From the NCBI GenBank assembly GCA_030157745.1, contig JAOAUE010000032.1, forward strand, positions 1-39,013: 39,013 nucleotides of DNA, given 5' to 3'. The DNA comes from Minisyncoccota bacterium. Its GTDB lineage: Bacteria; Patescibacteriota; Minisyncoccia; Phycocordibacterales; UBA9973. The notes under the pieces were generated by a model. It was given only the letters and a program-made list of their open reading frames with translations. It did not search any database and had not been told where the DNA came from. Made by a program: the position numbers and the translations under genes. Of this stretch, positions 9,465 to 27,451 are shown piece by piece; within the stretch, counting starts at the first letter, position 1; each line of letters starts with the position of its first letter.

Positions 9465-9593
9465 CTAATTCTTTAGCTTTTCAATATCATACATATTATC
9501 ACCATCGTAAGCTTTAACTATTATTTTGTAAGCAAACAAAGAAGCGAAAGACGTAAATATCAGAAAATAAATCAAAGTTTTTCTAAGTGTCAT
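9465..9593 (-). CDS. possible small membrane protein (42 aa, below the ORF-track cutoff)
   Basis: ATG 10 nt downstream of the tgt stop. Translation MTLRKTLIYFLIFTSFASLFAYKII... has one TM helix. Weak evidence only. Confidence 0.25.
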   Translation of the reverse strand: MTLRKTLIYFLIFTSFASLFAYKIIVKAYDGDNMYDIEKLKN

Positions 9594-9603
9594 ATACTAA
9601 ATA

Positions 9604-10815
9604 TTATACCTCTTTATAATATCTAGAGCAAAAGTCTTTCTTAAACTCAAAGAAGTCCCCGTCAAAGATACTTTGTCTCATCTTTTCAACAAGTCTCAAT
9701 ATGAAATGAATGTTGTGTATAGAAGCCAAAGTTGCAGCAGTCATTTCATCTGCTCGGAAAAGATGCGCAATATACGCCCGACTATGATGAGCGCATGTAT
9801 AACAAGAACAATCATTTTCTATAGGAGTAAAATCATCCACAAATTTTGCATTGCGAATATTTAGTCTGCCGTCATGAGTGTGTAGTGTTCCATGTCGTCC
9901 CATACGAGTTGGGGCTATACAATCAAAAAGATCACACCCTGCCTCGACAGCATCAAAAAGATCTCTCGGCTCTCCTATCCCGAGAAGATGTCTAGGTTTT
10001 TCTTCGGGCAATATTTTGTTGACCCAAGAAACAGCGGTTGCGATATCATCTTTGGTAAAGGAGCCTCCTATTCCATATCCATCAAATCCTTCGGCAAGCT
10101 CAGGACTAGACGCTAGCGCACCAAGAGTTTTGGCGGCTTCTTCTCTTAAATCTTGGTGTCTTCCGCCCTGAATAACTGCAAATAAAGCCTGCTTCTTTTC
10201 TGAATCTAGTTCATTATGTTTTGCAAGACAACGCTTGGCCCATTCATAGGTTCTATCGAGGGATTTTTTTTGATATTCATAAGGAGCTGTCGGACTAGTA
10301 CATTCATCAAAAGCAAATATCATATCAGCTCCTATCTTCCATTGTGCCTCCATAGAACTCTCAGGGGTAAAGAAGTGCGTAGAGCCATCTATATGACTTT
10401 TGAATGTCACGCCTTCATCTGTGACCTTTGCGAGTTGCCCTGCGGTCGAAGAAATATCTTCAACAGGTGCATCAGCTGAAGCAACCTTGGAAACAGCGCT
10501 TCCAAATGCAGCACCCAAAGAAAAAGCTTGGAAGCCTCCACTGTCAGTCATAGTCGGACCATGCCAATCCATAAACTTTCCAAAGCCTCCGGCTTTTTCA
10601 ACTATATCTGTACCTGGCTGAAGATATAAGTGATAGGTATTTGCCAAGACTACTTGCGCACCCAGGCTTCTGATCTGCTCGGCTGTCAGAGCCTTGACTG
10701 TGGCTTTAGTGCCGACGACTACAAAAGCCGGAGTTTCTATAACGCCATTTTGGGTCTCAATAGTTCCAGCTCGAGCAAGTGTACCTTCTAGTTTTTTTTC
10801 GATAGAGAATTTCAT
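9604..10815 (-). CDS. tgt: tRNA-guanine transglycosylase (queuine tRNA-ribosyltransferase)
   Basis: Motifs LANTYHL and DSGGFQ, plus the zinc site CSCYTCAHHSRAYIAHL. The ATG at 10815 (MKFSIEKK...) avoids overlap with mreC; the track start is 10839. Confidence 0.9.
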   Translation of the reverse strand: MKFSIEKKLEGTLARAGTIETQNGVIETPAFVVVGTKATVKALTAEQIRSLGAQVVLANTYHLYLQPGTDIVEKAGGFGKFMDWHGPTMTDSGGFQAFSLGAAFGSAVSKVASADAPVEDISSTAGQLAKVTDEGVTFKSHIDGSTHFFTPESSMEAQWKIGADMIFAFDECTSPTAPYEYQKKSLDRTYEWAKRCLAKHNELDSEKKQALFAVIQGGRHQDLREEAAKTLGALASSPELAEGFDGYGIGGSFTKDDIATAVSWVNKILPEEKPRHLLGIGEPRDLFDAVEAGCDLFDCIAPTRMGRHGTLHTHDGRLNIRNAKFVDDFTPIENDCSCYTCAHHSRAYIAHLFRADEMTAATLASIHNIHFILRLVEKMRQSIFDGDFFEFKKDFCSRYYKEV

Positions 10816-10820
10816 GGAAA

Positions 10821-11558
10821 TTATTTCACCACCACCCATTTAAGTGTCTGTAAATTCACCGGTGCCTTGGCGAGAAGCCTTTGGAATGGATCACGAGGGT
10901 CTGTGACTATCTTTTGGATAGAAGCGAGTGGGTGAAGCGCGAGAGATTGGTCAGTGATAATGTCGCCTTCATTGAAAGCTATATCTCTAGGCATACGAAC
11001 TTCGTATTCGCCAGAGCCTCGACCGATGAGAGTAATGTTCAGGTCGCTAGCTGTTACAGAGCCGACTGTCTCCCTACCAGGAGAGCTGTACAAAAGCACT
11101 GTTGAAGAATTTTCAGAAACTTCCGAAATAGTCCCGAGAGAAATAGACCCAAACGCATAAACATTTTGTCCTACAGAGATACCAAGATTGCTCCCAACAT
11201 CAATAACAAGTGTGTCATAAATAGAACGATTTGGTGGGACTATAACTCTAGCCAAAGTTCCTTTGATAAATCCTTCTCTGCCAAACTCTTTTTTTAAATT
11301 TTCATTTTCTTTTTCTAAACTAGAGAGAACTATTAGAGAAGCATTTTGTACATCTATAGCACTTTGAAGTTCGACAACCTTTTTTATCAAAGATTGTTTT
11401 GAGAGAAACGTCAATGAAGCGACGTCACTATAAATAGGCGCGCCCAAACCTCTAAACTTTTTGATCCATGAAAACAAAAACCAAACAACAAAAAGTAGTA
11501 TTATTACAAAAATAATTTTTCTCCAATTTATAGATCTGTTTTTACGAAACTGTGACAT
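10821..11558 (-). CDS. mreC: rod shape-determining protein MreC
   Basis: Directly downstream of mreB, overlapping it by 17 nt. N-terminal TM helix, coiled-coil segment, beta-rich C-terminal domain. Confidence 0.7.
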   Translation of the reverse strand: MSQFRKNRSINWRKIIFVIILLFVVWFLFSWIKKFRGLGAPIYSDVASLTFLSKQSLIKKVVELQSAIDVQNASLIVLSSLEKENENLKKEFGREGFIKGTLARVIVPPNRSIYDTLVIDVGSNLGISVGQNVYAFGSISLGTISEVSENSSTVLLYSSPGRETVGSVTASDLNITLIGRGSGEYEVRMPRDIAFNEGDIITDQSLALHPLASIQKIVTDPRDPFQRLLAKAPVNLQTLKWVVVK

Positions 11559-17114: not shown

Positions 17115-17224
17115 AATATAGTTCAGTTGGCCCCATTTTTTGGAGCCGATTACGCCACCTTATCTGTTTTGGTGGATATAATGATTAGCAATAAAACAGA
17201 CACTGGTTAGCACATCCAGTACAT

Positions 17225-17300
17225 GCCGCTTTAGCTCAGTTGGTAGAGCAACGCTTTTGTAAAGCGAAGGTCGTCAGTTCAAGTCTGACAAGCGGCTCCA
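17225..17300 (+). tRNA. tRNA-Thr (anticodon TGT) with encoded CCA
   Basis: Manual cloverleaf fold: acceptor GCCGCTT/AAGCGGC; D arm GCTC-AGTTGGT-AGAGC; anticodon arm ACGCT-TTTGTAA-AGCGA with anticodon TGT; variable loop AGGTC; T arm GTCAG-TTCAAGT-CTGAC; discriminator T plus CCA. Confidence 0.9.
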
Positions 17301-18828
17301 TCACTCGCATTTCGTCGGGAATACTAAAATTAGCACGGGCGGCGCGAAGCGCCGACCACGGATTTTCGCCTGATTTTGAAACAGCATTCTCGGAATTCGG
17401 CGCGCTCGCACGCACTGTTTTTTCGCCAAGGAGGAGGTTCGAGCCAAAGACTTTTTTGGCAGCAACCTTTTTATCTAAAAAGTTGCTATCCAATGCGATT
17501 TTTTCCATATCCTGAGCCTCTTTTATCCATTTTGCCATCGGTTCGAGCCACAATTTTTGTTTGCTCTCCGAACGAGAGATTTCTTCCTCCAGCGACTTTT
17601 TCTCGGATAATAATTTTGCTTTTTCCGCTCGATAAATTTCCTTTTCTATATCTTGATCTAAATATCCGTCTAAAAGTCGCTGGAGCTTCACTGTGATGCC
17701 TTGTATCTTTTTCTCGTTTTCGAAAACAAAAATATGAACAGATTGGGCGGATTCCGTTTTGTCTTTTTCAAGTCTTTCATTCAGATAATCCGCCCAATCT
17801 TGTGGCATAGAAACTTTTTGAAGAAGTGATGAAATTTGCGCGTCCATTTTTTCTGCTCGAATACAAGGTTCAGGGCATTTTTGAGTTTTTGATTTCTTGG
17901 TACAGCGATAATATGTATAGAAATGTTGAGTACCATTTTTCTGCGTTTTTACCTTGTATTCGCCAGTTATTTGCATTCCGCACGACGCGCACGAAAGCAG
18001 TCCGCAATATGCTTGTGGATTATTCTTATGCTTACCAGTCGGACGACTTTTCCGCTCCATCACTTCTTGCACCTGGTCAAAAAGTTTCTTTGACACGATT
18101 GGCTCGTGCTTGCCTTCGTGTACTTCGAGATTAAACCTGAAATGTCCGTAATAAAATGGATTTGAGAGGATAAAGGTCGTACGCGAGATGTGGATTCTCT
18201 TTCCTTGTTTGGTTAGCAAGCGGTTTGCTTCAAAATACTCGCCGATACTTTGAAGTGTAGAATCTCCTTTTGCGTAAAGTTCAAATGCTTGGCGAATAAT
18301 CGGAGCAGTCTTTTTGTCAGCAACAACAGTTTTCGTCCTCGAATCGTTTATATACCCCACCGGAGCCAGACTTGGATATTCGCCACGCCTGACTTTCTGC
18401 CGCAAACCGCGCTTCGTATTTTCGGAAAGAGAATCCACATAGTATTTGCTTTGTCCAAATGCCATATTGAGCATAAACTTGCCTTGTGAACTGCTGTCAC
18501 ACCAAAATGTCGGGAATTTTAAACTCACAAGTTTTTCTGTGTCGAGGAGATAGATAATACGCCCACCATCAACAGAATTACGAGCGAGACGGTCAGGATG
18601 CCACGCGAGAATATTTCCGCCGAGTTTTTCAATTTCATTTAGCATCTCGTTAAATATCGGACGACCAGGAATCTTGGCAGATTGTTTTTCCACATACTCG
18701 GCGGAGATTTCAATATTCTCTCGCGTGGCATAGTCTCGCAATTCTTGAAGTTGTGCTTCAATCGAAAGAACCTGCTTATCCTCGACATCAGTTGACTTGC
18801 GAGCATACAAAAAGAATTTTTCACTCAT
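17236..18828 (-). CDS. large serine recombinase (resolvase/invertase N-terminal domain, recombinase domain, zinc ribbon, coiled coil)
   Basis: YARKSTDVEDKQVLSIEAQ catalytic-Ser region; WHPDRLARN; Cys-rich CASCGMQ...YYRCTKK...CPEPC; long coiled coil. The last ~42 codons lie in inverted repeat IR1, and the final 20 codons read antisense through the tRNA, so the exact functional C-terminus is uncertain. Confidence 0.85.
   Translation of the reverse strand: MSEKFFLYARKSTDVEDKQVLSIEAQLQELRDYATRENIEISAEYVEKQSAKIPGRPIFNEMLNEIEKLGGNILAWHPDRLARNSVDGGRIIYLLDTEKLVSLKFPTFWCDSSSQGKFMLNMAFGQSKYYVDSLSENTKRGLRQKVRRGEYPSLAPVGYINDSRTKTVVADKKTAPIIRQAFELYAKGDSTLQSIGEYFEANRLLTKQGKRIHISRTTFILSNPFYYGHFRFNLEVHEGKHEPIVSKKLFDQVQEVMERKSRPTGKHKNNPQAYCGLLSCASCGMQITGEYKVKTQKNGTQHFYTYYRCTKKSKTQKCPEPCIRAEKMDAQISSLLQKVSMPQDWADYLNERLEKDKTESAQSVHIFVFENEKKIQGITVKLQRLLDGYLDQDIEKEIYRAEKAKLLSEKKSLEEEISRSESKQKLWLEPMAKWIKEAQDMEKIALDSNFLDKKVAAKKVFGSNLLLGEKTVRASAPNSENAVSKSGENPWSALRAARANFSIPDEMRVMEPLVRLELTTFALQKRCSTN
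17296..17421 (+). repeat. inverted repeat IR1, left copy (126 bp)
   Basis: Exact reverse complement of 18907-19032, checked base by base. Imperfect extension to 17442 / 18886. Confidence 0.9.
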
Positions 18829-18906
18829 TTATTGATTCTAACAAAAATTCTTTTTGTATGTAAATAGCAAAAATTGCATTTGATTTCGAACCTCCTCCTC
18901 CAAAAC

Positions 18907-19032
18907 AAAACAGTGCGTGCGAGCGCGCCGAATTCCGAGAATGCTGTTTCAAAATCAGGCGAAAATCCGTGGTCGGCGCTTCGCGCCGCCCGTGCTAATT
19001 TTAGTATTCCCGACGAAATGCGAGTGATGGAG
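18907..19032 (-). repeat. inverted repeat IR1, right copy (126 bp); a duplicated recombinase 3' end
   Basis: Exact reverse complement of 17296-17421. Read on the plus strand it encodes ...SNLLLQNKTVRASAPNSENAVSKSGENPWSALRAARANFSIPDEMRVME, the recombinase C-terminal peptide. Confidence 0.9.
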
Positions 19033-19215
19033 TGGTTGTACGATTCGGCTCGAACCTATTTCATCAAAAATTCATAAATGTATTAAATGCGGACTCGGTT
19101 TTGCGAAAGCTCTTTTTTGGGGACACGGATTTCGCAAAACCTCGGCTGATTCTTTTTTGGCATTCGCCTCTGGTTCTGGGTTCTCCCGCAGGAGGGGTTT
19201 GGGGAGGAATGCGGG
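19030..19215 (+). repeat. inverted repeat IR2, left copy (186 bp)
   Basis: Exact reverse complement of 26046-26231, checked base by base. Overlaps IR1-right by the 3-nt GAG core. Ends 2 nt before the RT1 stop codon. Confidence 0.9.
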
Positions 19216-19217
19216 GG

Positions 19218-20306
19218 TTATTTTGGGTCTTTGAGAAAATGTTTAAACTTATTCCGTAAGCGATAACTATTGGCATGAGAAAAATGTCCGAGATATGAGC
19301 TTATGCCAGCTTGTAATTTCTCTCGCGTTTTCTCGTGGCAAGGAAGCCTCAATTTTTCTGCCCTCTGTTTACACCTTCCAACAGTTGCCCGACGAACGAG
19401 GACATGAGTGGGCTTGATAATATACCCGACGAAGTCAATACCGTGGCGCACTCGTTGCAAGATAATTTTCCGCGGATGGATGTTGAGCTTGCGTTCTCTC
19501 TTCAGCCACACTTCTATCTGTACCACCGCACTCTTTAATTTTTCTTTATCCGCATCAAGAAATACGAAATCGTCCACATACCTCGCGTAGCGAGGAAATC
19601 CGAGCGTCTGGCTGATATATTTATCAAGCCCGTCGAGATAGCAGTTAGCGAAGAATTGCGAGGTCAAGTTCCCTATCGGCAAGCCCGTACCGCCGGAGTA
19701 AAAGAGTGATTTATGTTTCGGGATAAGTGCTTTGAGTGCAGTATCTCCCCTGTAAATATAATCAAGTGTCGGGTCACAAAAGATAACCTGCTCGCAAATC
19801 CAAAGCATATCCCCTTTCCACCACTCGGGTTTTTCTTGCTGATTGATAAGCCCTGCGATGACATCAAAAAGAATTGGTCGGTCAATCGAACGGAAGAAGC
19901 TCTCGACATCAAGCTTCAGATACCAATCATTCGGGCGCTCTCGGGCATAGGCACGCACTTGCTTGAATCCTGAGTGCGTCCCCTTGCCTTCCCTATTGGC
20001 ATACGAAGTTGGCACGAACCAACTTTCGCACAAAGGAGCAAGCTCGTTGTAAATAATATGGTGTATAACCCGATCACGAAAGTCGGCAGCAAAAATCTCT
20101 CTCGGCTTCGGGTCAGTCACGACAAAAGAAATATGTCGACTGATGCAGTATGTCCGTTCAGTGAGTTCTTTCCGCAGACTGATAAGCTCGCGCTCCCGCA
20201 AGAGTTCAAACCGAAGTCGATTGACTGTTTTCTTTTTACGCTTGATACAGCTCTTGTACGCCAGCCAGAGATTCTCTAAGGTAAAAATAGTTTCTACTGT
20301 ATTCAT
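19218..20306 (-). CDS. DGR reverse transcriptase 1
   Basis: RT motifs, including the DGR-typical LPIGNLTSQFFANCYL and the YxDD box YARYVDDFVFL. Lies immediately downstream of TR1. Start taken at ATG 20306 (MNTVETIFTLENLWLAYK); alternative start 20327. The track ORF extends to 20606 only by reading through TR1. Confidence 0.9.
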   Translation of the reverse strand: MNTVETIFTLENLWLAYKSCIKRKKKTVNRLRFELLRERELISLRKELTERTYCISRHISFVVTDPKPREIFAADFRDRVIHHIIYNELAPLCESWFVPTSYANREGKGTHSGFKQVRAYARERPNDWYLKLDVESFFRSIDRPILFDVIAGLINQQEKPEWWKGDMLWICEQVIFCDPTLDYIYRGDTALKALIPKHKSLFYSGGTGLPIGNLTSQFFANCYLDGLDKYISQTLGFPRYARYVDDFVFLDADKEKLKSAVVQIEVWLKRERKLNIHPRKIILQRVRHGIDFVGYIIKPTHVLVRRATVGRCKQRAEKLRLPCHEKTREKLQAGISSYLGHFSHANSYRLRNKFKHFLKDPK

Positions 20307-20354
20307 TTGGTCTGTTATTGTGCGCATAAAGCAGAGGGTTCGATAGAGGAGTTC

Positions 20355-20491
20355 TCGAACACACCGGACATAGTTGCCATTGGTCTTATCATTCGCATCA
20401 GAGTTGCCATTGTTGAAGTTCACGTTCCAGGCGTTGTTCTCATTGCCCGGATTCTGATAGGTAGAGGACGACCAGTAGTTGTCCGACTGTG
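20355..20491 (-). repeat. DGR-1 template repeat (TR1, 137 bp)
   Basis: Aligns without gaps to 21137-21273 with 25 mismatches. 24 of them are at TR adenines (sense strand). Asn (AAY) codon-rich in frame. Confidence 0.9.
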
Positions 20492-20605
20492 AAATATGAT
20501 ATGTGCGTGACTGTCCGTGTCGGACGTACAGCGCAAATTCGTTTCGTTTATCCTCAGAACTATTAAAAATAATTCTGAGAGCACACACTGAACTCCTCGT
20601 CCTCA

Positions 20606-21007
20606 CTAAAACAATGTTTTTATAGTTGTCTTATTCTGGGTGGGCGCAGTTTTTTTCGGACTGCACGAAGTTCTCCAACCCTCTGCTTGACGCGCGCAAT
20701 CCACCACTTGCTCGACCAGATACAAGTATTGCCGCGGCGAAGCGAACTGCTTCAGCTCCTCGGCTACGCGGAGCATAATCGTAATCTCCTCAATCTTCCA
20801 AACCAACTCACTCAAAACAGCACTCCTGTGTTCAACCGGAGTGCTATTGGCTTTTACGATCAGCCGTACTGCTTCCATCGCGCTTGCAAGGAGCGATGCG
20901 CCGAGCGTGTACTTGTATTGCTTGTCTATTTTCGGCACACGAATGTAGAACTCTTTCAGGAGCCTGAACGTTGCGCTATAGATAGGGAGGTGTTGGTATT
21001 GAGCCAT
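20606..21007 (-). CDS. avd: DGR accessory variability determinant (Avd-like four-helix-bundle protein)
   Basis: 133 aa helical, basic protein in the canonical position between the target gene and TR/RT. Sequence resembles the four-helix-bundle (23S rRNA IVS protein) family. Confidence 0.75.
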   Translation of the reverse strand: MAQYQHLPIYSATFRLLKEFYIRVPKIDKQYKYTLGASLLASAMEAVRLIVKANSTPVEHRSAVLSELVWKIEEITIMLRVAEELKQFASPRQYLYLVEQVVDCARQAEGWRTSCSPKKTAPTQNKTTIKTLF

Positions 21008-21025
21008 AGAAAAATATCACCCCCC

Positions 21026-21047
21026 CCCCTCGCGAAAACGCGAGGGG
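21026..21047 (-). promoter_or_regulatory. GC-rich hairpin (9-bp stem, 4-nt loop) downstream of VR1, embedded in a G10 tract
   Basis: CCCCTCGCG-AAAA-CGCGAGGGG on the plus strand. About 86 nt 3' of the target stop codon and 19 nt 5' of the avd ATG. Confidence 0.5.
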
Positions 21048-21133
21048 AAGAATAACCAAAGGAATAAAAAGAATCGAGAAAAGAACCCAAAGAAAAACCG
21101 CAAAAATTATCAAATAAACAAATCATCAAAGAA

Positions 21134-21976
21134 TTATCGAACACACCGGACATAGCCGCCCTCGGCCTTACCAACCGCATCAGAGTAGCCATCGCCGAAG
21201 CTCACGAGCCAGGCGCCGCCCTCACCGCCCGGACCCTGATAGGTAGAGGACGACCAGTAGCTGCCCGACTGTGTGTTTGGGAAGAATGTCGTATCGATGG
21301 CAGGGTTGACTGTGGCAAGGCTCACAATGGAAAGAAGTTCGATTCTATTTGGCAAGCGCCAGTCACTGTGTCCCGCTGTGGTATCGGCTTCACAGGTCGA
21401 GAGCGCAGTCGTCCAGTCAAGTCCAGTAGCAGAATCAGCCGAACAGTCAGTATCTGATTGTCCTTCGGAACATTTTTTCCACATAAGTCCTGTCGCGTTA
21501 TCCGAAATCGTGCTGTCAGTATTATCTACAAATCGCGCGCCGCTTGTGGGTAAACCTTTTTCGTAGTCGCCATCTTGTCCGGTACCAGTACACGATATTG
21601 GAGTACCACTTGCATCCCAACAATCAGTCTGACCAGTTTTTGGTAGTCCAGCTTGTCCAGCCGATGCAGTACCTGCAACGCCCATATATGTCGTCCCTGT
21701 GAGTATTTTAGTCGCATCAAGCGTCGGAATGCTTTCATAAATCTGCTTGAGGGTGTGAAATGTCGCAGACACAGAGCCAGGCGTAGTAAACGAAGCCGAA
21801 CCTTCGACTTGGCTTGTCGTGTTGTCGATGAGTCTGTTGTAAATGCCATCGAGTGTGTACATCGTGCTTGCCGGAACTCCAGGCGGAGTAAGCGAACCTG
21901 CAAAACTTGTGCGGACAAATGCACCGATTATAAATGCGACGAGAACAAAGGAACCGATTTTTAGAAACTTTTTCAT
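21134..21976 (-). CDS. DGR-1 variable target protein, secreted DUF1566 (Lcl C-terminal / C-type-lectin-fold) protein
   Basis: Signal peptide. GLMWKK...HSDWRLPNRIELLSIV...YWSSSTY...YVRCVR is the DUF1566 signature. The C-terminal 45 codons are VR1. Confidence 0.9.
   Translation of the reverse strand: MKKFLKIGSFVLVAFIIGAFVRTSFAGSLTPPGVPASTMYTLDGIYNRLIDNTTSQVEGSASFTTPGSVSATFHTLKQIYESIPTLDATKILTGTTYMGVAGTASAGQAGLPKTGQTDCWDASGTPISCTGTGQDGDYEKGLPTSGARFVDNTDSTISDNATGLMWKKCSEGQSDTDCSADSATGLDWTTALSTCEADTTAGHSDWRLPNRIELLSIVSLATVNPAIDTTFFPNTQSGSYWSSSTYQGPGGEGGAWLVSFGDGYSDAVGKAEGGYVRCVR
21137..21273 (-). repeat. DGR-1 variable repeat (VR1)
   Basis: 137-bp match to TR1 with adenine-specific substitutions, at the extreme 3' end of the target ORF. 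Confidence 0.9.
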
Positions 21977-21977
21977 A

Positions 21978-22856
21978 TTATTTACTATTTAATTTATTTC
22001 TTGTAATAGGACCGACGATGCCATCTGCTGTGAGAGTATTATTTTTTTGAAACGTTACCACCGCTTGCTTGCTCTTTGGACCAAAAATGCCGTCAGTCAC
22101 TAAAGGTGGCGACAATGTCTGAACTTTTTTGTTGAGACATATTTGCAAGTCTTTGACGTTGGTGTTATTCATCCGAGGAATTGTCAGCTTTAAAGTTTGA
22201 GTGAAGTTGAGTGTACACACTGTAGTAGGTAAAGTTGTCGGAAGTGTTGTAATCACAATAGTTCCCTCGCTTGCAGTCAAATACGATCCTTTGCAATCTG
22301 GATCAGCTAAATCAATCTTCCCATCGTGGTCATCGTCAATGCCATTGTTGCACTGTGTGATTATTCGCCCTCCCCCACTACTGTGACTAGTACTTGGTGC
22401 GGGCGTGACTGGTGGTCGCCACGCAGTCGTCACTTTGTAGTCCACTGTCCCGCAACTTGAAGTGTTGGCGCAGTTAAAAGAGATCCAACCGATATTTGGG
22501 CTATATGCGTAGCCAGAAAAAATTCCAGTGCTTGTGTTGATGGTCGCCTGAGAGAAATCCACATAGCCAGTATTCTCGCTCCACGCGTAACCTGAGAGTG
22601 TGCCGGAGGAATTTGAAACTTTGTAATCAGTGGTACCGCATGAACTAGTGTTATCACAATTGAGCGACAACCAGCCGATGTTCGGACTGTACGCATAGCC
22701 GGAAAGTACGCTACTTGAAACAGTCACTTGAGAAAAATCTATCCAGCCAGTATTCTCGCTCCAGGCATAACCGGAGGTGCTATCTGCAAACGCTTTTGTC
22801 GCAGAGAAAAACATTATTGATAATATGAATAAACTAAAAACGGATTTTAATCTCAT
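21978..22856 (-). CDS. secreted repeat protein with a C-terminal peptidoglycan-binding domain
   Basis: Signal peptide. Two ~70-aa repeats carrying GYAWSENTGW(I/V)DFSQ and GYAYSPNIGW(L/I)S(L/F)NC. C-terminal PG_binding_1-like DGIFGPKSKQAVVTFQKNNTLTADGIVGPITRNKL. Its stop is 1 nt from the DGR-1 target start. Confidence 0.8.
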   Translation of the reverse strand: MRLKSVFSLFILSIMFFSATKAFADSTSGYAWSENTGWIDFSQVTVSSSVLSGYAYSPNIGWLSLNCDNTSSCGTTDYKVSNSSGTLSGYAWSENTGYVDFSQATINTSTGIFSGYAYSPNIGWISFNCANTSSCGTVDYKVTTAWRPPVTPAPSTSHSSGGGRIITQCNNGIDDDHDGKIDLADPDCKGSYLTASEGTIVITTLPTTLPTTVCTLNFTQTLKLTIPRMNNTNVKDLQICLNKKVQTLSPPLVTDGIFGPKSKQAVVTFQKNNTLTADGIVGPITRNKLNSK

Positions 22857-22877
22857 TCTATTATTATACCCCCCCCC
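22857..22877 (-). promoter_or_regulatory. G9 tract abutting a TATAAT box 6 nt upstream of the ATG (candidate leaderless promoter of the DGR-1 operon)
   Basis: The minus strand reads GGGGGGGGG-TATAAT-AATAGA-ATG. Confidence 0.4.
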
Positions 22878-22904
22878 GAGCGTTTTGGCAAGGGTGTTGC
22901 CCCC

Positions 22905-23930
22905 CTATTCCTTGTTAAAATCGGCCGTTTGAGAACGCTTTACATACTCAACAACTTGCCCCGCGAGCCTCTCTGCGTTTCCGTGGCTCAATAGCCCGAG
23001 ATACGACTGAACTGTTTCTTCCTTGCCCTCTTTCTCTTTGATACGCTTCCACATCCTGCGTTTCGTTGCCGTTCTTACTATGCGGTGATCGGGAAAATGT
23101 ACCCAGCCGAGGAAATCAACACCGGAGGCAAGCGTCTTTATAAAAACTTTATTGGGATGAAGTGATAGCTTGAGTCGTTCTTTTAGGAAAGAACCTACTT
23201 GGGGTAGTATCGTTTCCAACCATTTCTTGTCTTCAGACAGAAAAACAAAATCGTCAGCATAGCGTATATAGTATTGTGCTTTCAACTTGTGCTTCACGAA
23301 TTGGTCAAACTCATTCATATATATGTTTACGAATATCTGCGAGGTAAGATTGCCAAGTGGAAGCCCAACCTCTTTTCGTGTCGAATGAAAACTCCCGATG
23401 ATACCTGATAACAAAGAGAGTATGTCTTCGTCAGAAATATATTTCTTGATAATCCCGATAAGTACACTATGGTCAATGGATGCAAAAAACTTTCGTATAT
23501 CGCATTTCAAAATCCATACTGTTCTTGTGTTATTTTTTGATACTGTGTCAGAAAACATTTTAAATCGTTGTAACGCTTTATGTGTTCCCTTTCGCTCTCG
23601 GCAAGAATAGGAGTCAGCTATAAATGTCTTATCGAAGAATGGATAGAGTTCCCGATAGAGTGCATGGTGAAGCAGTCTATCCCGCACCCTTGCTTTATGT
23701 ATACTTCGTGGCTTTGGGTCAGATATATTGAATGCGTAATAGTCGGAGTGCTTATATGTTTTTTGTGAAAGTTCATTGTGAAGCTCTATGATATTCGCCA
23801 TTAAATTTCGCTCAAAATCCAAGACATCTTTTCGGAGTTTTTTACCTTTCAAAAAATCTTTCCACGCAAGGAGGAGATTTTCAAGAGAAATGATATATTG
23901 ATATGTATGAATAAACTGAATCCGAGCCAT
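22905..23930 (-). CDS. DGR reverse transcriptase 2
   Basis: LPLGNLTSQIFVNIYM and YIRYADDFVFL motifs; N-terminal ...SLENLLLAWKDFLKGKK. Paired with TR2/VR2. ATG at 23930 preferred; the track start at 23960 translates the G-tract. Confidence 0.9.
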   Translation of the reverse strand: MARIQFIHTYQYIISLENLLLAWKDFLKGKKLRKDVLDFERNLMANIIELHNELSQKTYKHSDYYAFNISDPKPRSIHKARVRDRLLHHALYRELYPFFDKTFIADSYSCRERKGTHKALQRFKMFSDTVSKNNTRTVWILKCDIRKFFASIDHSVLIGIIKKYISDEDILSLLSGIIGSFHSTRKEVGLPLGNLTSQIFVNIYMNEFDQFVKHKLKAQYYIRYADDFVFLSEDKKWLETILPQVGSFLKERLKLSLHPNKVFIKTLASGVDFLGWVHFPDHRIVRTATKRRMWKRIKEKEGKEETVQSYLGLLSHGNAERLAGQVVEYVKRSQTADFNKE

Positions 23931-23992
23931 AATAACTATAAAGATACCCCCCCCCGACAACGCTTTTACCAGTACTTCAGAAACTCAAAACT

Positions 23993-24313
23993 GTGTATAT
24001 CTTATGGTATCAGTATTATCAAAACTTGCCTAAAGCCCATCGCTACTCGCTTGGAGTACGGATTGATGCCTTGTTCGTAGAAATAATGGAAGCTATCTCA
24101 CTTGCAGGATTTCTTCCCCGTAGCGAGAAACAAACCTATGTACGGCTCTCTATACGGAAAGTAGATACTCTTAAAATCTTACTGATGATTGTATGGGAAA
24201 CGAAATCTATAGATAATAGGAAATACATCGCCCTCTCTGTACCACTTGAAGAAATCGGGAAAATGCTCGGCGGTTGGAACGGACAGCTTACAAAACAAAA
24301 CTCCCCCAACTAA
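23993..24313 (+). CDS. avd: Avd-like four-helix-bundle protein, divergent from RT2
   Basis: 106 aa helical protein (…AHRYSLGVRIDALFVEIMEAI…KVDTLKILLMIVWETKSIDNRKYIALSVPLEEIGKMLGGW). GTG start. Lies between RT2 and TR2 but on the opposite strand. Confidence 0.65.
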   Translation: MYILWYQYYQNLPKAHRYSLGVRIDALFVEIMEAISLAGFLPRSEKQTYVRLSIRKVDTLKILLMIVWETKSIDNRKYIALSVPLEEIGKMLGGWNGQLTKQNSPN

Positions 24314-24337
24314 ATAGTTGAGGGAGAAAGAAGAGAG

Positions 24338-24440
24338 TTGCGAACACCAGCGAACCACCAATTGTCATTCCAGTCGTTATCATTACGATTGACATTCACG
24401 TTACGCTCGTCGTCATTCCAGTGGTTGAACGTGGCAATTT
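24338..24440 (-). repeat. DGR-2 template repeat (TR2, ~103 bp)
   Basis: Gap-free alignment to 24803-24905 with 20 mismatches, all at TR adenines (sense strand). In-frame translation is Asn-rich (NVNVNRNDNDWNDNWWFAGVR). Confidence 0.9.
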
Positions 24441-24676
24441 GTACAAAGTATCATCTGTGCCACTGCCCTTTGAATACTCTCGGGGCTGTATCGTATTTGC
24501 GATCATAATCGCTCGATACTCTGTACCAAGTATCTTCATTTTTTGTTTGAAGTTTCTACATACACCACTCTATCCTAAGCCGTAGCCCTAGATATTCTCA
24601 ATGTATGGATACTGGGATCGGTAGCGGACAATCGTGATCGTCCACATATTCACCTACTGCCATGATTATTTTAGCA

Positions 24677-24709
24677 TAAAAAATACCCCTGCGTTTTATG
24701 CGAGGGGTA
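24677..24709 (-). terminator. rho-independent terminator after the DGR-2 target gene
   Basis: The minus strand reads ACCCCTCGCATAAAACGCAGGGGT followed by ATTTTTTAT. Confidence 0.55.
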
Positions 24710-24798
24710 GGAAGTTTGTAAAACCTCCAAAACTTTTTGCGAACGAAGGGCAAAGTTCAAAGTGTCAAAATAGGACAGAGTGAACAAAATCCTAAGTA

Positions 24799-25410
24799 CT
24801 ACTTGCGAACACCAGCGAACCACCAACCGTCATCCCAGCCGTCATCACCACGACTGACAAACACGCTACGCCCGCCGCCATTCCAGCGGTCGAACGCGGC
24901 AAAGCACCATTTACCATTTGCATCCTTCCAGTGTGTACCATTAGGATATTTGTCAGCAAAGGCAGGATCAGCTTCGTTTACAGCAGCCTGTGAATACGGG
25001 TCGGCGGGTTTTAATCCACGGAGGTCATATTCTTTTTCCAGGTCGTTGTCATTAACAAAGCGACCAAGGTTAAAGAAGAAAACTTCTGTTTCTTCGCCTT
25101 CTCCTTTTGGCATTTTGGCAACAACACCGCTATCAGTGTATTGCTTCCTGCCTGTGGCATCCAACATTTCTTTTGGTGATCGGTTGCGGTTTACTTTTAC
25201 CTTGCGGATAATCAGATTACTGATCGCATCCACACGTTTAAGGATTGAAGCATACATCTCATCCAATAATGTTTCATCTCCAAGCACTTGCTGGAAAAGA
25301 TTACTTGGAAGCTCATTTTTGTGCTTCAGTAATCGTGCAGTCAAGTTTTGGTTTAATTTACCGATTTGACCTTCGGTAACAGGTTCTGTTGATGGGGTCA
25401 TAGTGTCCAT
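24799..25410 (-). CDS. DGR-2 variable target protein (no signal peptide; C-terminal CLec/FGE-like variable region)
   Basis: 203 aa. The C-terminus ...WCFAAFDRWNGGGRSVFVSRGDDGWDDGWWFAGVRK is VR2. No N-terminal hydrophobic segment. Confidence 0.85.
   Translation of the reverse strand: MDTMTPSTEPVTEGQIGKLNQNLTARLLKHKNELPSNLFQQVLGDETLLDEMYASILKRVDAISNLIIRKVKVNRNRSPKEMLDATGRKQYTDSGVVAKMPKGEGEETEVFFFNLGRFVNDNDLEKEYDLRGLKPADPYSQAAVNEADPAFADKYPNGTHWKDANGKWCFAAFDRWNGGGRSVFVSRGDDGWDDGWWFAGVRK
24803..24905 (-). repeat. DGR-2 variable repeat (VR2)
   Basis: Matches TR2 with adenine-specific substitutions, at the 3' end of the ORF. Confidence 0.9.
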
Positions 25411-25599
25411 GGCGTCATCGTTTTAATTGTTTGTGCCATCGGACTATACCTTCGTGGTATAGCCATAGCCAAAAAGTGCTTAGAGATAAGAACCTTTTGG
25501 CTATGGCTATGTTGCAAGTAGATGTAAAAGAGCTGTTCCGAGCTGTATAATAGCATAATAAACCATAAAAGTCAATCTTTGAGTTTAGAAATGGAGCGA

Positions 25600-26045
25600 T
25601 GACCTATTCACGGGGAGTGTCTTCCGTGCGCGCGAATGGGTGGGATAGTCCGCCTGTATTCAGGCGGACTGGGTCAAGCGCAGTTGCATCTGAGCCTCGG
25701 GCATTTCCGCTATGAGCGTCCAATGGCTAAAGGATGAGCGCCGTGGGTAATCGAAGTGGAATATGTAAATAGCGAAGCAAAAGATACACGCTAATATGAA
25801 AAGCGTGGAGTGGGTGTGGCGAGGGCGCACGACGAGGAACGAGGAGTATATCGCCCGACCCAGGGAGAGGAGACTTCCTCTCCCTAAGAAGCGCGGGTGA
25901 TAACCCGCACATAGGCACCTAGGCGCGAGTAGCCATAGCGGAAATGCCCGAGGCGGATGCCGAGGGTGCATCCCCTTTAGACTTGGACAATACATAGCAG
26001 AGAAATGACTGAGACAATGATTTAGTCCTGTTTCTTTCTTAGAAG
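25600..26045 (+). ncRNA. candidate large structured RNA or DNA element (unclassified)
   Basis: ORF-poor and GC-rich. A perfect 21-bp long-range helix pairs 25693-25713 with 25933-25953. Nested hairpins: AGTCCGCC/GGCGGACT at 25648-25671, AGGGAGAGGA/TCCTCTCCCT at 25862-25885, GCGGGT/ACCCGC. A TATAAT box lies at 25546-25551. Strand and ends are uncertain. Confidence 0.4.
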
Positions 26046-26231
26046 CCCGCATTCCTCCCCAAACCCCTCCTGCGGGAGAACCCAGAACCAGAGGCGAATG
26101 CCAAAAAAGAATCAGCCGAGGTTTTGCGAAATCCGTGTCCCCAAAAAAGAGCTTTCGCAAAACCGAGTCCGCATTTAATACATTTATGAATTTTTGATGA
26201 AATAGGTTCGAGCCGAATCGTACAACCACTC
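26046..26231 (-). repeat. inverted repeat IR2, right copy (186 bp), right end of the island
   Basis: Exact reverse complement of 19030-19215. Confidence 0.9.
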
Positions 26232-26244
26232 AAGGATATACAAA

Positions 26245-26310
26245 CAGTTGGTAGAGTTCTGTCAACGCATAACTAAAGCGAAAGGTCTTTCAAGTCTGAC
26301 AAGGGACTCC
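26245..26310 (+). pseudogene. degenerate partial tRNA-Thr copy (3' three-quarters)
   Basis: Shares CAGTTGGTAGAG, AACGC, AAGCGAA, GGTC and TTCAAGTCTGACAAG with the tRNA at 17225. It has an insertion, a broken T stem and no 5' acceptor strand. Confidence 0.65.
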
Positions 26311-26317
26311 GGCATAA

Positions 26318-26344
26318 GAAAACCCATCACAAGGATGGGTTTTC
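26318..26344. terminator. bidirectional terminator
   Basis: AAAACCCATC-acaa-GGATGGGTTTT hairpin with flanking A/T runs, directly after the stop of the 26345 gene. Confidence 0.6.
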
Positions 26345-27451
26345 TTATTCAACACTATGAATCTTTTTTTCTATATCTTCTTCTAAAGCAGTGACATGCT
26401 CCATTTCTTCTTTGAGAGACTGGTGTACTCTCTGCAATTCTTTTAGCTCATCTTCAACTTCACTAACGGTTTCTTTTTTTCTAGTTCTACTAAAAAGCAT
26501 TTTTATTTGAGTTTTCCTCAGTGTTACAACAGTGACAACTGTAGCTATGATAAGAACAATAAAACCAGCAAATATAAGCCACAAATGCAGGTTGTTATCA
26601 GCAGGAGATTCTTTTAGATTATTTGCGTTATCTATAGTACCTATATCTATCCATTTATCTATGATAACTTGCTTTTCAGCGTCAGAGAGAGCCTTGAGCC
26701 CTTGGTCTAGTATAAGCAAAAGTTCAGGTTTTGACTTTGGAACCGCAAATGAGTGTTTGTATTCAAAACCAGTACGACCGACTGCTTTTATATAAGAGAG
26801 CACATCCTTGCTTGTGTAATATGAAAGAGAAGCTAGATCCATAACAGCTGCGTCGACTTCTCCGAGGAGGAGTTTTTGTAGAGCGACTTCGTCATCAGAG
26901 ACAGGTACTATTTCAACCTTTTCATAGTTGGTCTTTATATAAGAAACAACTGGATAGCCCTCTCCTACTGCTACCTTTTTATTTTTAAAAGATGACAAAG
27001 ATGTTACGGTGCTTTTTTCTTTGAAGTCCTTTCTAACAACAACAACTGCTGGCATAGTAAGGTAAGAGTCGGTAAAATTGAAATTTTTCTCTAGTTCCTC
27101 TGTTGGGCTTAGAGAAAGTATGATGCTGTCGAAATCTAACTCCTTAGATTCTTTTAAAATCTCACCCAAAGAAGCCTCTTCTTCATAAGAGAGCTTTGCG
27201 CCGATTTTTGATGCAATTGCCTCTAAATATTCAGCTGACAAGCCCTTGATCTTCCTCGAAGTACCAGAGCCCAAAAAAACATAAGGGGGGTTACTCTTTT
27301 CCGGCTTTATAGAAATAGTACGATTGTATTTATTTAGCCATAAATTTTGAGTAGGAGTCAATACTTGAGCAGAAACTATAGATGCACTGAAAAAGCTTAG
27401 GCAAAAAATAGCCAGAAACACTGCTGAGATATATTTGCTGAGCTTGGGCAT
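26345..27451 (-). CDS. membrane-anchored solute-binding protein (SBP_bac_3-like domain, C-terminal TM helix, coiled coil)
   Basis: Signal peptide. Periplasmic-binding fold features (NPPYVFL, GLSAEYLEAIASKIG, DAAVMDLAS). TM helix LWLIFAGFIVLIIATVVTVVTL, then a charged coiled coil. Confidence 0.75.
   Translation of the reverse strand: MPKLSKYISAVFLAIFCLSFFSASIVSAQVLTPTQNLWLNKYNRTISIKPEKSNPPYVFLGSGTSRKIKGLSAEYLEAIASKIGAKLSYEEEASLGEILKESKELDFDSIILSLSPTEELEKNFNFTDSYLTMPAVVVVRKDFKEKSTVTSLSSFKNKKVAVGEGYPVVSYIKTNYEKVEIVPVSDDEVALQKLLLGEVDAAVMDLASLSYYTSKDVLSYIKAVGRTGFEYKHSFAVPKSKPELLLILDQGLKALSDAEKQVIIDKWIDIGTIDNANNLKESPADNNLHLWLIFAGFIVLIIATVVTVVTLRKTQIKMLFSRTRKKETVSEVEDELKELQRVHQSLKEEMEHVTALEEDIEKKIHSVE
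26792..26902. repeat. 111-bp block identical to 27945-28055 (direct repeat inside the paralogous SBP genes)
   Basis: Base-by-base identical. Encodes VSDDEVALQKLLLGEVDAAVMDLASLSYYTSKDVLSY in both genes. Confidence 0.9.

Follow-up and report, generated by a model that had tools for sequence, protein, structure and literature searches.

A stretch of 39,013 nt from a Minisyncoccota bacterium (assembly GCA_030157745.1, contig JAOAUE010000032.1, positions 1 to 39,013), hereafter the window, contains two diversity-generating retroelements (DGRs), of which the second, DGR-2 (22905-25410), is the subject of this analysis. Read along the minus strand, DGR-2 comprises a target gene that ends in the variable repeat (VR) VR2, a terminator hairpin (24708 to 24685), a spacer, the template repeat (TR) TR2, an open reading frame (ORF) on the plus strand for a protein of the accessory variability determinant (Avd) type, and the gene of the reverse transcriptase (RT) RT2 (Table 1). 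The positions of the ORFs and of the hairpin agree with the minus-strand order of target, terminator, spacer, TR2 and RT2 that an earlier reading of this DNA (the original prediction) had given.

Table 1. Coordinates of DGR-2, of the G/C tracts and of the island features; positions are those of the window except in the last two lines, which refer to the loci L093 and L092.
Feature	Position	Strand	Properties and evidence
DGR-2 target gene	24799-25410	minus	203 aa, without signal peptide or transmembrane segment
VR2 variable repeat	24803-24905	minus	C-terminus of the 203-aa ORF; differs at TR-A positions among island copies
Terminator hairpin and U-run ending the target mRNA	24679-24708	minus	Sequence; equivalent hairpin and T-run in related loci
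Predicted extended -10 promoter TGCTAAAAT of the TR RNA	24668-24676	minus	TGnTAnnnT motif
Structured 5' domain of the TR RNA, starting GGCAGUAGG	24441-24661	minus	Covariation; longest helix abuts TR
TR2 template repeat	24338-24440	minus	Adenine-only mismatches to VR2; invariant in all four island copies
Linker AACUCUCUUCUUU, hairpin (24326 to 24301) and U-run, terminator-like end of the TR RNA	24291-24337	minus	Hairpin and U-run in 36/39 loci
avd2, accessory variability determinant	23963-24313	plus	bAvd; opposite strand, convergent with TR2
C9 tract (G9 on the RT strand)	23947-23955		Between the starts of avd2 and RT2; repeat here in 43/44 related loci
RT2, DGR reverse transcriptase	22905-23930	minus	RVT_1, 1.2e-23; 8ub7_A, 8.9e-44; ATG start at 23930
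C9 tract	22869-22877		Operon of the peptidoglycan-binding protein and DGR-1 target; in the 17-nt spacer of a TTGCCA-N17-TATAAT promoter
C10 tract	21020-21029		avd1-TR1-RT1 operon; G/C homopolymer of at least 8
Large serine recombinase, 530 aa	17236-18828	minus	Resolvase, Recombinase and Zn-ribbon domains
Inverted repeats around the recombinase gene	17296-17442 / 18886-19032		147 nt, 96% complementary
Inverted repeats around all cargo	19030-19215 / 26046-26231		186 nt, 100% complementary
Repeats of the same design in L093	2769-2905 / 9541-9677 and 9674-9811 / 11387-11524
Repeats of the same design in L092	50-196 / 1651-1797

The repeat pair bears the signature of adenine-directed mutagenesis. 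On the minus strand, TR2 (24440 to 24338) and VR2 (24905 to 24803) align without gaps over 103 nt with 20 mismatches, and each of the 20 falls on an adenine of TR2 (16 A to G, three A to T and one A to C); coordinates, mismatch count and adenine bias had all been noted originally, and the repeat ends exactly where it had been placed. Adenines make up 31 of the 103 nt of TR2, and the chance that all 20 mismatches would fall on them is about (31/103)^20, or 4e-11. The repeat is bounded at its 5' limit, 24440, by a C/T mismatch at the next 5' position, which is not an adenine change, and at its 3' limit it stops one base short of the VR stop codon. In a comparison of the initiation of mutagenic homology (IMH and IMH*) segments, the GC-rich 3' segment GGTGGTTCGCTGGTGTTCGCAA is the same in TR2 and VR2, which part directly after it; a terminator-type hairpin within 90 nt after the VR was detected in 15 of 39 loci, the window not being among them. 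Read in frame, TR2 offers 19 adenine-bearing, diversifiable codons, none of which can be turned into a stop codon by adenine substitution, and these 19 codons allow roughly 5e16 protein variants.

With an RT, Avd, TR and target of its own, DGR-2 forms a second, complete DGR that is distinct from DGR-1. Identity is 33.6% between RT1 and RT2 and 21% between Avd1 and Avd2, so that the two are separate systems, and within the window TR1 matches VR1 only and TR2 matches VR2 only, as expected from the earlier statement that the RTs differ and the TRs are unrelated. A search of the whole window for further ends resembling VR1 or VR2, which would mark the remote targets whose existence had been raised, found none besides VR1 and VR2 themselves. 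The description of the two as independent diversifiers therefore stands with regard to their components, but both lie on one mobile island and share the same G-tract promoter design, as described below.

RT2 matches the Pfam family RVT_1 (1.2e-23), and its best match in the PDB, 8ub7_A (8.9e-44), aligns over nearly the full length of the protein (query residues 13-316 on residues 11-304 of the 328 of the chain); the search result named this chain only "Reverse transcriptase", and we take it to be the reverse transcriptase of the Bordetella phage DGR. In this alignment YADD of RT2 lies on YMDD, and LGNLTSQ on IGSLTSQ, of 8ub7_A. Because the alignment is nearly full length and both motifs are present, RT2 is neither truncated nor short of catalytic residues, a doubt that the original prediction had raised. 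Its start is most likely the ATG at 23930; there is an in-frame TTG at 23960. The second doubt raised there, that the Avd-like ORF might be unrelated to the Avd family, is likewise answered by the family searches. Read from the listed GTG at 23993, Avd2 scores 35.9 bits against the Pfam family bAvd (PF22296), and an extended form that includes the sequence LLPVLQKLK reaches 38.5 bits (E=1.8e-9) over profile positions 4-104 of 107, the two values lying just below the curated gathering cut-off of 40 bits; bAvd is matched by all 20 family members, Avd2 and 19 relatives, with a best E of 1.2e-18. The best PDB match of the Avd family profile is Bbp7 (4dwl_A), a weak one (E=0.16), and Avd2 as a single sequence gave no match in the PDB. 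The helix LLPVLQKLK is a conserved N-terminal one and is encoded from 23963, upstream of the listed GTG, and avd2 thus probably starts upstream of 23993, as judged from this conservation.

The target is a small protein that carries VR2 at its C-terminus and shows no hydrophobic N-terminus or transmembrane segment, as originally stated; its hydropathy maximum (Kyte-Doolittle, 19-residue mean) is 0.57, compared with 2.06 at residue 3 of the DGR-1 target, where a signal or anchor is obvious. A non-secreted location is plausible. More than 1000 proteins of about 200 aa belong to the target family; those with a named source come from Patescibacteria of the Paceibacteria type, and neither the DGR-2 target nor its family members match any Pfam family. 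An alignment of 37 target sequences shows a well-conserved body, followed in the last 30 or so residues by the pattern FxRWxxxxRxVxVxRxxxxWxDxWWFAGVRK, whose x positions are hypervariable. The AlphaFold (AF2) model, a confident one with a predicted local distance difference test score (pLDDT) of 92.7, consists of an N-terminal helical bundle and an alpha/beta domain that ends in the strands of the VR. Foldseek with this model gave C-type-lectin-like matches that are weak (PDB, E about 0.4-1 and TM-score at most 0.47; BFVD, best E=0.037), with no match at E<=0.001 in either database; nor did the target match any PDB sequence, even with the 37-sequence profile, or show similarity to the DGR-1 target in hhalign. 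Our best guess is that the target binds a ligand and either remains intracellular or is exported along a non-classical path.

Two side observations concern the target gene. Its 5' leader (25411-25560) contains a 16-bp hairpin at 25459-25510; target genes of unrelated loci have this leader too, L004 and L005 matching its segment 25411-25558 at 76%, and L066 and L073 the hairpin itself at 84%. The leader may be a lineage-wide regulatory element. In about 30 further loci (L009, L011, L014, L018, L020, L026, L027, L037, L040 and others) a target homolog has no TR, avd or RT within 6 kb, and in L004 a truncated RT alone is retained beside the homolog; the target family therefore either outlives the loss of its DGR or receives its diversification from another part of the genome.

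The most direct evidence that DGR-2 has been at work comes from natural copies of the island on which it lies. We compared the window with two NCBI assemblies (L001 and L002) and with one contig of a metagenome-assembled genome (L008), which holds a partial copy. From 17223 to 26231 the window is identical to L001 and L002 save in five places. VR1 differs from theirs at 23 positions and VR2 at 13, all 13 of which are TR2 adenines; one extra homopolymer base also distinguishes the copies, and an 8-position patch differs in a non-coding hairpin at 25898-25922. L002 has in addition a 13-bp frameshifting deletion in its RT2 gene (window 23274-23286), while its VR2 is that of L001. In L008, VR2 has yet another, third form, in which 3 nt are deleted, and indels of this kind adjacent to AAC codons have been described (Wu et al. 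2018, PMC5758913). Among island copies that are otherwise identical, VR2 thus has three alleles, which differ at TR-A positions, and natural copies set apart almost solely by their variable repeats are direct evidence of activity. As judged from this turnover of VR2, DGR-2 is recently active and not a relic.

To place DGR-2 among related systems, we fetched 80 loci that encode relatives of the target and located TR, avd and RT in each; the window and 35 non-redundant loci with 50-96% target identity form the lineage set of 36. In all 36 the TR begins 315-441 nt after the end of the VR on the same strand, most having no mismatch outside adenines, avd is always on the opposite strand, and the RT follows on the strand of the TR; none has a co-directional avd. 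The avd stop codon mostly lies 10-30 nt past the last aligned TR codon. [quoted passage not shown] The original prediction was right that the Avd ORF lies on the opposite strand between TR2 and RT2, but its view that this layout is unusual does not hold for CPR bacteria, and the same is true of the emphasis it placed on a target without signal peptide or transmembrane segment. Both of these special-looking features are already described as the CPR norm, and on this island it is DGR-1, not DGR-2, that is the less typical for a CPR genome. DGR-2 shares with the CPR DGRs (B3 of Wu 2018; "DGR clade 2" of Roux et al.) the TR, the reverse-strand avd, the RT, the upstream target, the host group, the adenine-specific mutagenesis and a target without transmembrane segment, signal peptide or recognizable domain, and there is no difference in kind; with its reverse-strand avd and signal-less target, it is an ordinary CPR element.

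Taken as a whole, the explanation that we consider probable is that DGR-2 is a complete, recently active DGR of the CPR-typical B3 layout, carried as cargo together with DGR-1 on an island that a large serine recombinase integrated at the 3' end of a tRNA-Thr gene, and that it works as follows. A non-coding TR RNA of about 370 nt would be made as a transcript of its own on the minus strand, roughly from 24661 to 24291. It would start at the extended -10 promoter right after the target terminator and would consist of a structured 5' domain of about 220 nt, the 103-nt TR, a 13-nt linker, and a hairpin with a U-run that ends before the 3' end of the convergent avd. RT2 and Avd2 would come from separate transcripts, both starting in the short avd-RT intergenic region. 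The RT2-Avd2 complex would then copy the TR into complementary DNA (cDNA) with errors at adenines, and the cDNA would replace VR2, recoding 19 codons for the C-terminal face of a binding protein that is small and probably not secreted.

The short region from which RT2 would be transcribed is marked by a simple-sequence repeat. On the RT strand, the G9 tract is followed immediately by the -10-like hexamer TATCTT and then, 10 nt on, by the ATG of RT2 (16 nt past the tract). At the equivalent site in 44 loci of the lineage we found G6 to G12 in 39 (mode G10), (CTGG)10-14 in three, (TGAC)13 in one and an assembly gap in one; because the tetranucleotide repeats stand at the same site as the G tracts, what is conserved is a slippage-prone simple-sequence repeat and not G-rich sequence. 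A -10-like TAnnnT hexamer follows the G tract in 11 of 19 loci by regular expression and is visible in most loci with a tract, the RT ATG typically lying 0-21 nt on. G/C homopolymers of at least 8 number three in the window, all on the island, and each of them, in the sense direction, directly precedes a -10-like hexamer with a start codon, the other two serving DGR-1 operons (Table 1); in 895 kb of fetched loci we tallied 55 such tracts, nearly all at avd-RT junctions. Tract length also varies between island copies, being G11 at RT2 in L008 and G9 in five other assemblies, and G9 or G10 at the neighboring operon.

Phase-variable promoters with homopolymer spacers are known from porA and opc of Neisseria (poly-G) and from fim of Bordetella (poly-C). 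The tracts described here resemble them in being 8-12 nt of G or C upstream of a -10-like hexamer and in differing in length between otherwise identical copies. They differ in that the -35 element is uncertain here and in that the genes under such control would be RT2, the DGR-1 avd-TR-RT operon and the DGR-1 target operon. We propose, tentatively and with more doubt than confidence in the two parts taken together, that the repeat at the RT promoter may toggle hypermutation stochastically, as similar tracts would at the DGR-1 operons, and that the template may be an ncRNA (non-coding RNA) gene of about 370 nt with a structured domain 5' of the TR. Neither homopolymers nor promoters of DGRs are mentioned in Wu 2018 (PMC5758913) or in the Roux preprint (bioRxiv 10.1101/2020.04.01.020958), which likewise do not mention a structured 5' domain of the TR RNA, a terminator-like hairpin after the TR, a repeat tract at the RT promoter or the carriage of two DGRs by a serine-recombinase island at tRNA-Thr.

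A reading of the tract that we judge to be evenly poised between right and wrong is that it serves these genomes as an invariable promoter or structural element, with no part as a mutable switch, and that its differences in length are errors of homopolymer sequencing or assembly. The RT2 tract differs in only one of six independent assemblies of the island (G11 against G9), homopolymers of 9-11 are error-prone in short-read assemblies, and the distance from the -35-like element to the -10 at RT tract loci runs from 14 to 22 nt without a clean ON/OFF pattern. A fixed element does not readily explain why (CTGG)10-14 or (TGAC)13 should occupy the same position in four loci, why G/C tracts of at least 8 should be nearly confined to these sites, or why tract lengths should be among the very few differences between island copies.

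The other half of the proposal, that the template is a self-contained RNA gene, is drawn from the region between target and TR, which over about 220 nt follows a fixed plan in the lineage: the target terminator with its U-run, the extended -10 element, a conserved RNA start and the structured domain. In 18 of 25 loci (the window counted) the TGnTAnnnT motif precedes the conserved start by 7-9 nt, and the start itself reads GG(Y)AGUAGG across the lineage, at position 24661 in the window. RNAalifold with 19 sequences of the 5' domain predicts 56 pairs, 36 of them with compensatory double changes. For the TR-proximal half, 31 sequences gave pairing in 96.8% of cells, compared with 33-56% when the partners were slid by 1-3 columns, and 142 double-change cells, compared with 37.5 in shuffles; none of 500 shuffles reached any of the observed measures. 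The longest helix of the domain, 24526-24515 paired to 24452-24441, directly abuts the first base of the TR. On the downstream side the TR is followed by a conserved 13-nt linker with the consensus AACUCUCUUCAUUUCUC, and then a hairpin and U-run that occur in 36 of 39 loci, mostly beginning 10-20 nt past the TR; stem sequences vary while the pairing is kept. The hairpin at 24326 to 24301 with its U-run UUUUGUUUUG is the only terminator-like site found in 22800-25700, and because the final codons of avd (...TKQNSPN) lie antisense to its 3' arm and U-run, this stretch is constrained on both strands. Thus, fixed plan, covariation and terminator-like end together led us to propose a TR RNA gene of about 370 nt. 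At the gathering threshold, Rfam found only tRNA-Thr in the whole window and no family over the TR RNA, and an exact 50-mer from the TR2 3' end and linker had 0 matches among JGI metagenome contigs.

The prototype of DGRs, that of the Bordetella phage BPP-1 (mtd-avd-TR-brt), resembles DGR-2 in its RT motifs, its bAvd-family protein, its C-terminal VR, A-to-N changes that cannot create stops, the GC-rich identical 3' segment of TR and VR, and the size of the RNA past the TR, about 47 nt here and an essential spacer (Sp) segment 1-56 there. In BPP-1, by contrast, avd lies upstream of the TR, whereas here it is inverted between TR and RT; the RNA upstream of the TR is avd coding sequence there and a dedicated non-coding structured domain here; and the target is a phage tail-fiber tip protein encoded on a phage there, and a small protein without secretion signal encoded on a chromosomal island here. 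In Bordetella the approximately 56 nt downstream of the TR matter most, with an Avd site at Sp 4-30 and priming at Sp 56, while RNA upstream of the TR adds to processivity (Handa 2018). By analogy, the tail of about 47 nt could take the role of Sp in the TR RNA of DGR-2, and the 5' domain could act as an enlarged upstream helper; 5' domain and 3' hairpin would then have roles in recruiting RT-Avd and in priming.

The Bordetella case also lends itself to a different reading, which we regard as rather unlikely, in which one long transcript would run from the promoter after the target through the hairpin, antisense across avd and into RT2, so that hairpin and linker merely bind Avd and prime cDNA synthesis. 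The Bordetella DGR RNA is a TR-spacer RNA of which the segment just after the TR binds Avd and primes (Handa 2018). The start codons of avd and RT2 are only 33-60 nt apart, leaving little room for two promoters, and a weak -35-like element, overlapping codons of avd, is what precedes RT2. On the other hand, a hairpin followed by a U-run, present in nearly all of the loci (36/39), has the form of an intrinsic terminator, a TAnnnT hexamer follows the G tract shortly before the RT ATG in about half or more of the loci, and read-through would collide with transcription of avd.

In preferring a self-contained TR RNA and an active DGR-2, we have to set several points in the balance against this preference. 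The promoter and terminator of the TR RNA are predictions of the consensus type, and the 3' hairpin could serve as an element of RNA structure and not as a terminator, TR and RT then being co-transcribed through antisense avd. The C-type-lectin fold that is expected of a DGR target is weakly indicated (best Foldseek E=0.037, TM-score at most 0.47), and both scores of Avd2 fall just below the gathering cut-off of its family. No ATG, GTG or TTG lies upstream of the conserved avd2 helix, the sole canonical start being the GTG at 23993. Finally, the VR2 differences show past activity in the lineage of the island and not in this particular cell line or population.

A further reading is that the window copy of DGR-2 is now inactive, for example through loss of the avd2 start codon, and that its relatives alone diversify. 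Besides lacking a usual start codon, the 5' region of avd2 has an in-frame TAA at 23939, 8 codons before the LLPVLQK helix, with the C tract between TAA and helix, and at a position where TTG is found in many homologs the window reads TTA; the sister copy L002, moreover, carries the 13-bp frameshift in RT2. We nevertheless consider inactivity of the window copy improbable: TR2, RT2 and the RNA elements are intact, and the same avd sequence occurs in L001 and L008, whose VR2 sequences differ from each other and from that of the window at adenines, so that diversification has happened with this avd allele. The original suggestion that the spacer 5' of TR2 arose by duplication and decay of the target 3' coding region, made on account of its stop-interrupted and faintly target-like translation, is hardly credible, because the regions upstream of TR and of VR share no DNA similarity, and because the spacer is conserved between loci and shows compensatory changes at 36 of its 56 pairs, which marks it as an RNA structure rather than a pseudogene.

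The island that carries both DGRs spans 17296-26231 (about 8.9 kb) at the 3' end of tRNA-Thr, the stretch that is identical between copies running from the tRNA-Thr gene (17225-17300) to 26231. The host flanks of the window and L001 share gene order, with proteins that are 40-77% identical (EF-Ts 77%, S2 76%, SBP 40%), whereas the island proteins recombinase, RT1 and RT2 are 100% identical; an identical island in divergent flanks points to recent horizontal transfer by the large serine recombinase. The G+C fraction is 0.43-0.48 in the island and 0.37-0.40 in most flanking windows. Cargo consists of DGR-1, a peptidoglycan-binding gene, DGR-2 and a non-coding structured region of about 480 nt. 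One pair of inverted repeats surrounds the recombinase gene and a second, adjoining pair surrounds all of the cargo (Table 1), and the junction inside the island therefore repeats, in inverted form, what its two ends would give when joined. This repeat design also occurs around recombinases 65-81% identical in other genomes (L092, L093 and, with shorter arms, L094), again adjoining tRNA-Thr genes in L092 and L093, and L093 also has DGR cargo. No flipped isomers of the segments flanked by inverted repeats were seen among the three full-length copies and the partial copy in L008, all of which have the orientation of the window. The DGR of Legionella pneumophila, which Roux et al. (bioRxiv 10.1101/2020.04.01.020958) place within a predicted mobile element, is alike in being cargo of a horizontally moving island; the island described here differs in being minimal, with recombinase, two DGRs, a cell-wall-binding gene and a non-coding region, in its place at the tRNA-Thr 3' end and in its internal inverted end-junction.

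The only real chance of novelty in DGR-2 lies in the delimited, covarying template-RNA gene, the repeat tract upstream of the RT and the carriage on a serine-recombinase island. By delimiting the template RNA through a predicted promoter, a covarying 5' domain of 220 nt, the TR and a hairpin end, our analysis makes reconstitution of a CPR DGR practical, and it raises the question of whether a 5' domain is used in place of the Bordetella 3' spacer. The repeat tract hints that the mutator may be turned on and off by cells; if true, this would add a new level of control to targeted hypermutation. The island with its serine recombinase, for its part, shows a route by which DGRs spread among bacteria with small genomes.

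Other features of the island and its edges may be added. DGR-1 (19218-21976) has the co-directional avd-TR-RT order and a target with an Lcl_C domain and a signal peptide or anchor; the listed RT1 ORF extends upstream through TR1, and because VR1 differs at 23 positions between island copies, DGR-1 has been active too. The non-coding region upstream of the DGR-2 target (25560-26045, about 480 nt), which occurs in island copies only, has a folding z of about -6.4 on both strands relative to shuffles and includes a long-range helix of about 27 bp (25688-25716 with 25936-25962); Rfam in E-value mode gave chance-level matches only over 25380-26360. The patch that differs between island copies in the hairpin at 25898-25922 is a compensatory difference, GCGGGTGATAACCCGC against GCGGGCTTGCCCGC. 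Just outside the right end of the island, at 26245-26312, lies a degenerate tRNA-like remnant, not called by ARAGORN, that has CAGTTGGTAGAG and the T-arm in common with tRNA-Thr, which suggests that the attachment site lies between tandem tRNA genes.

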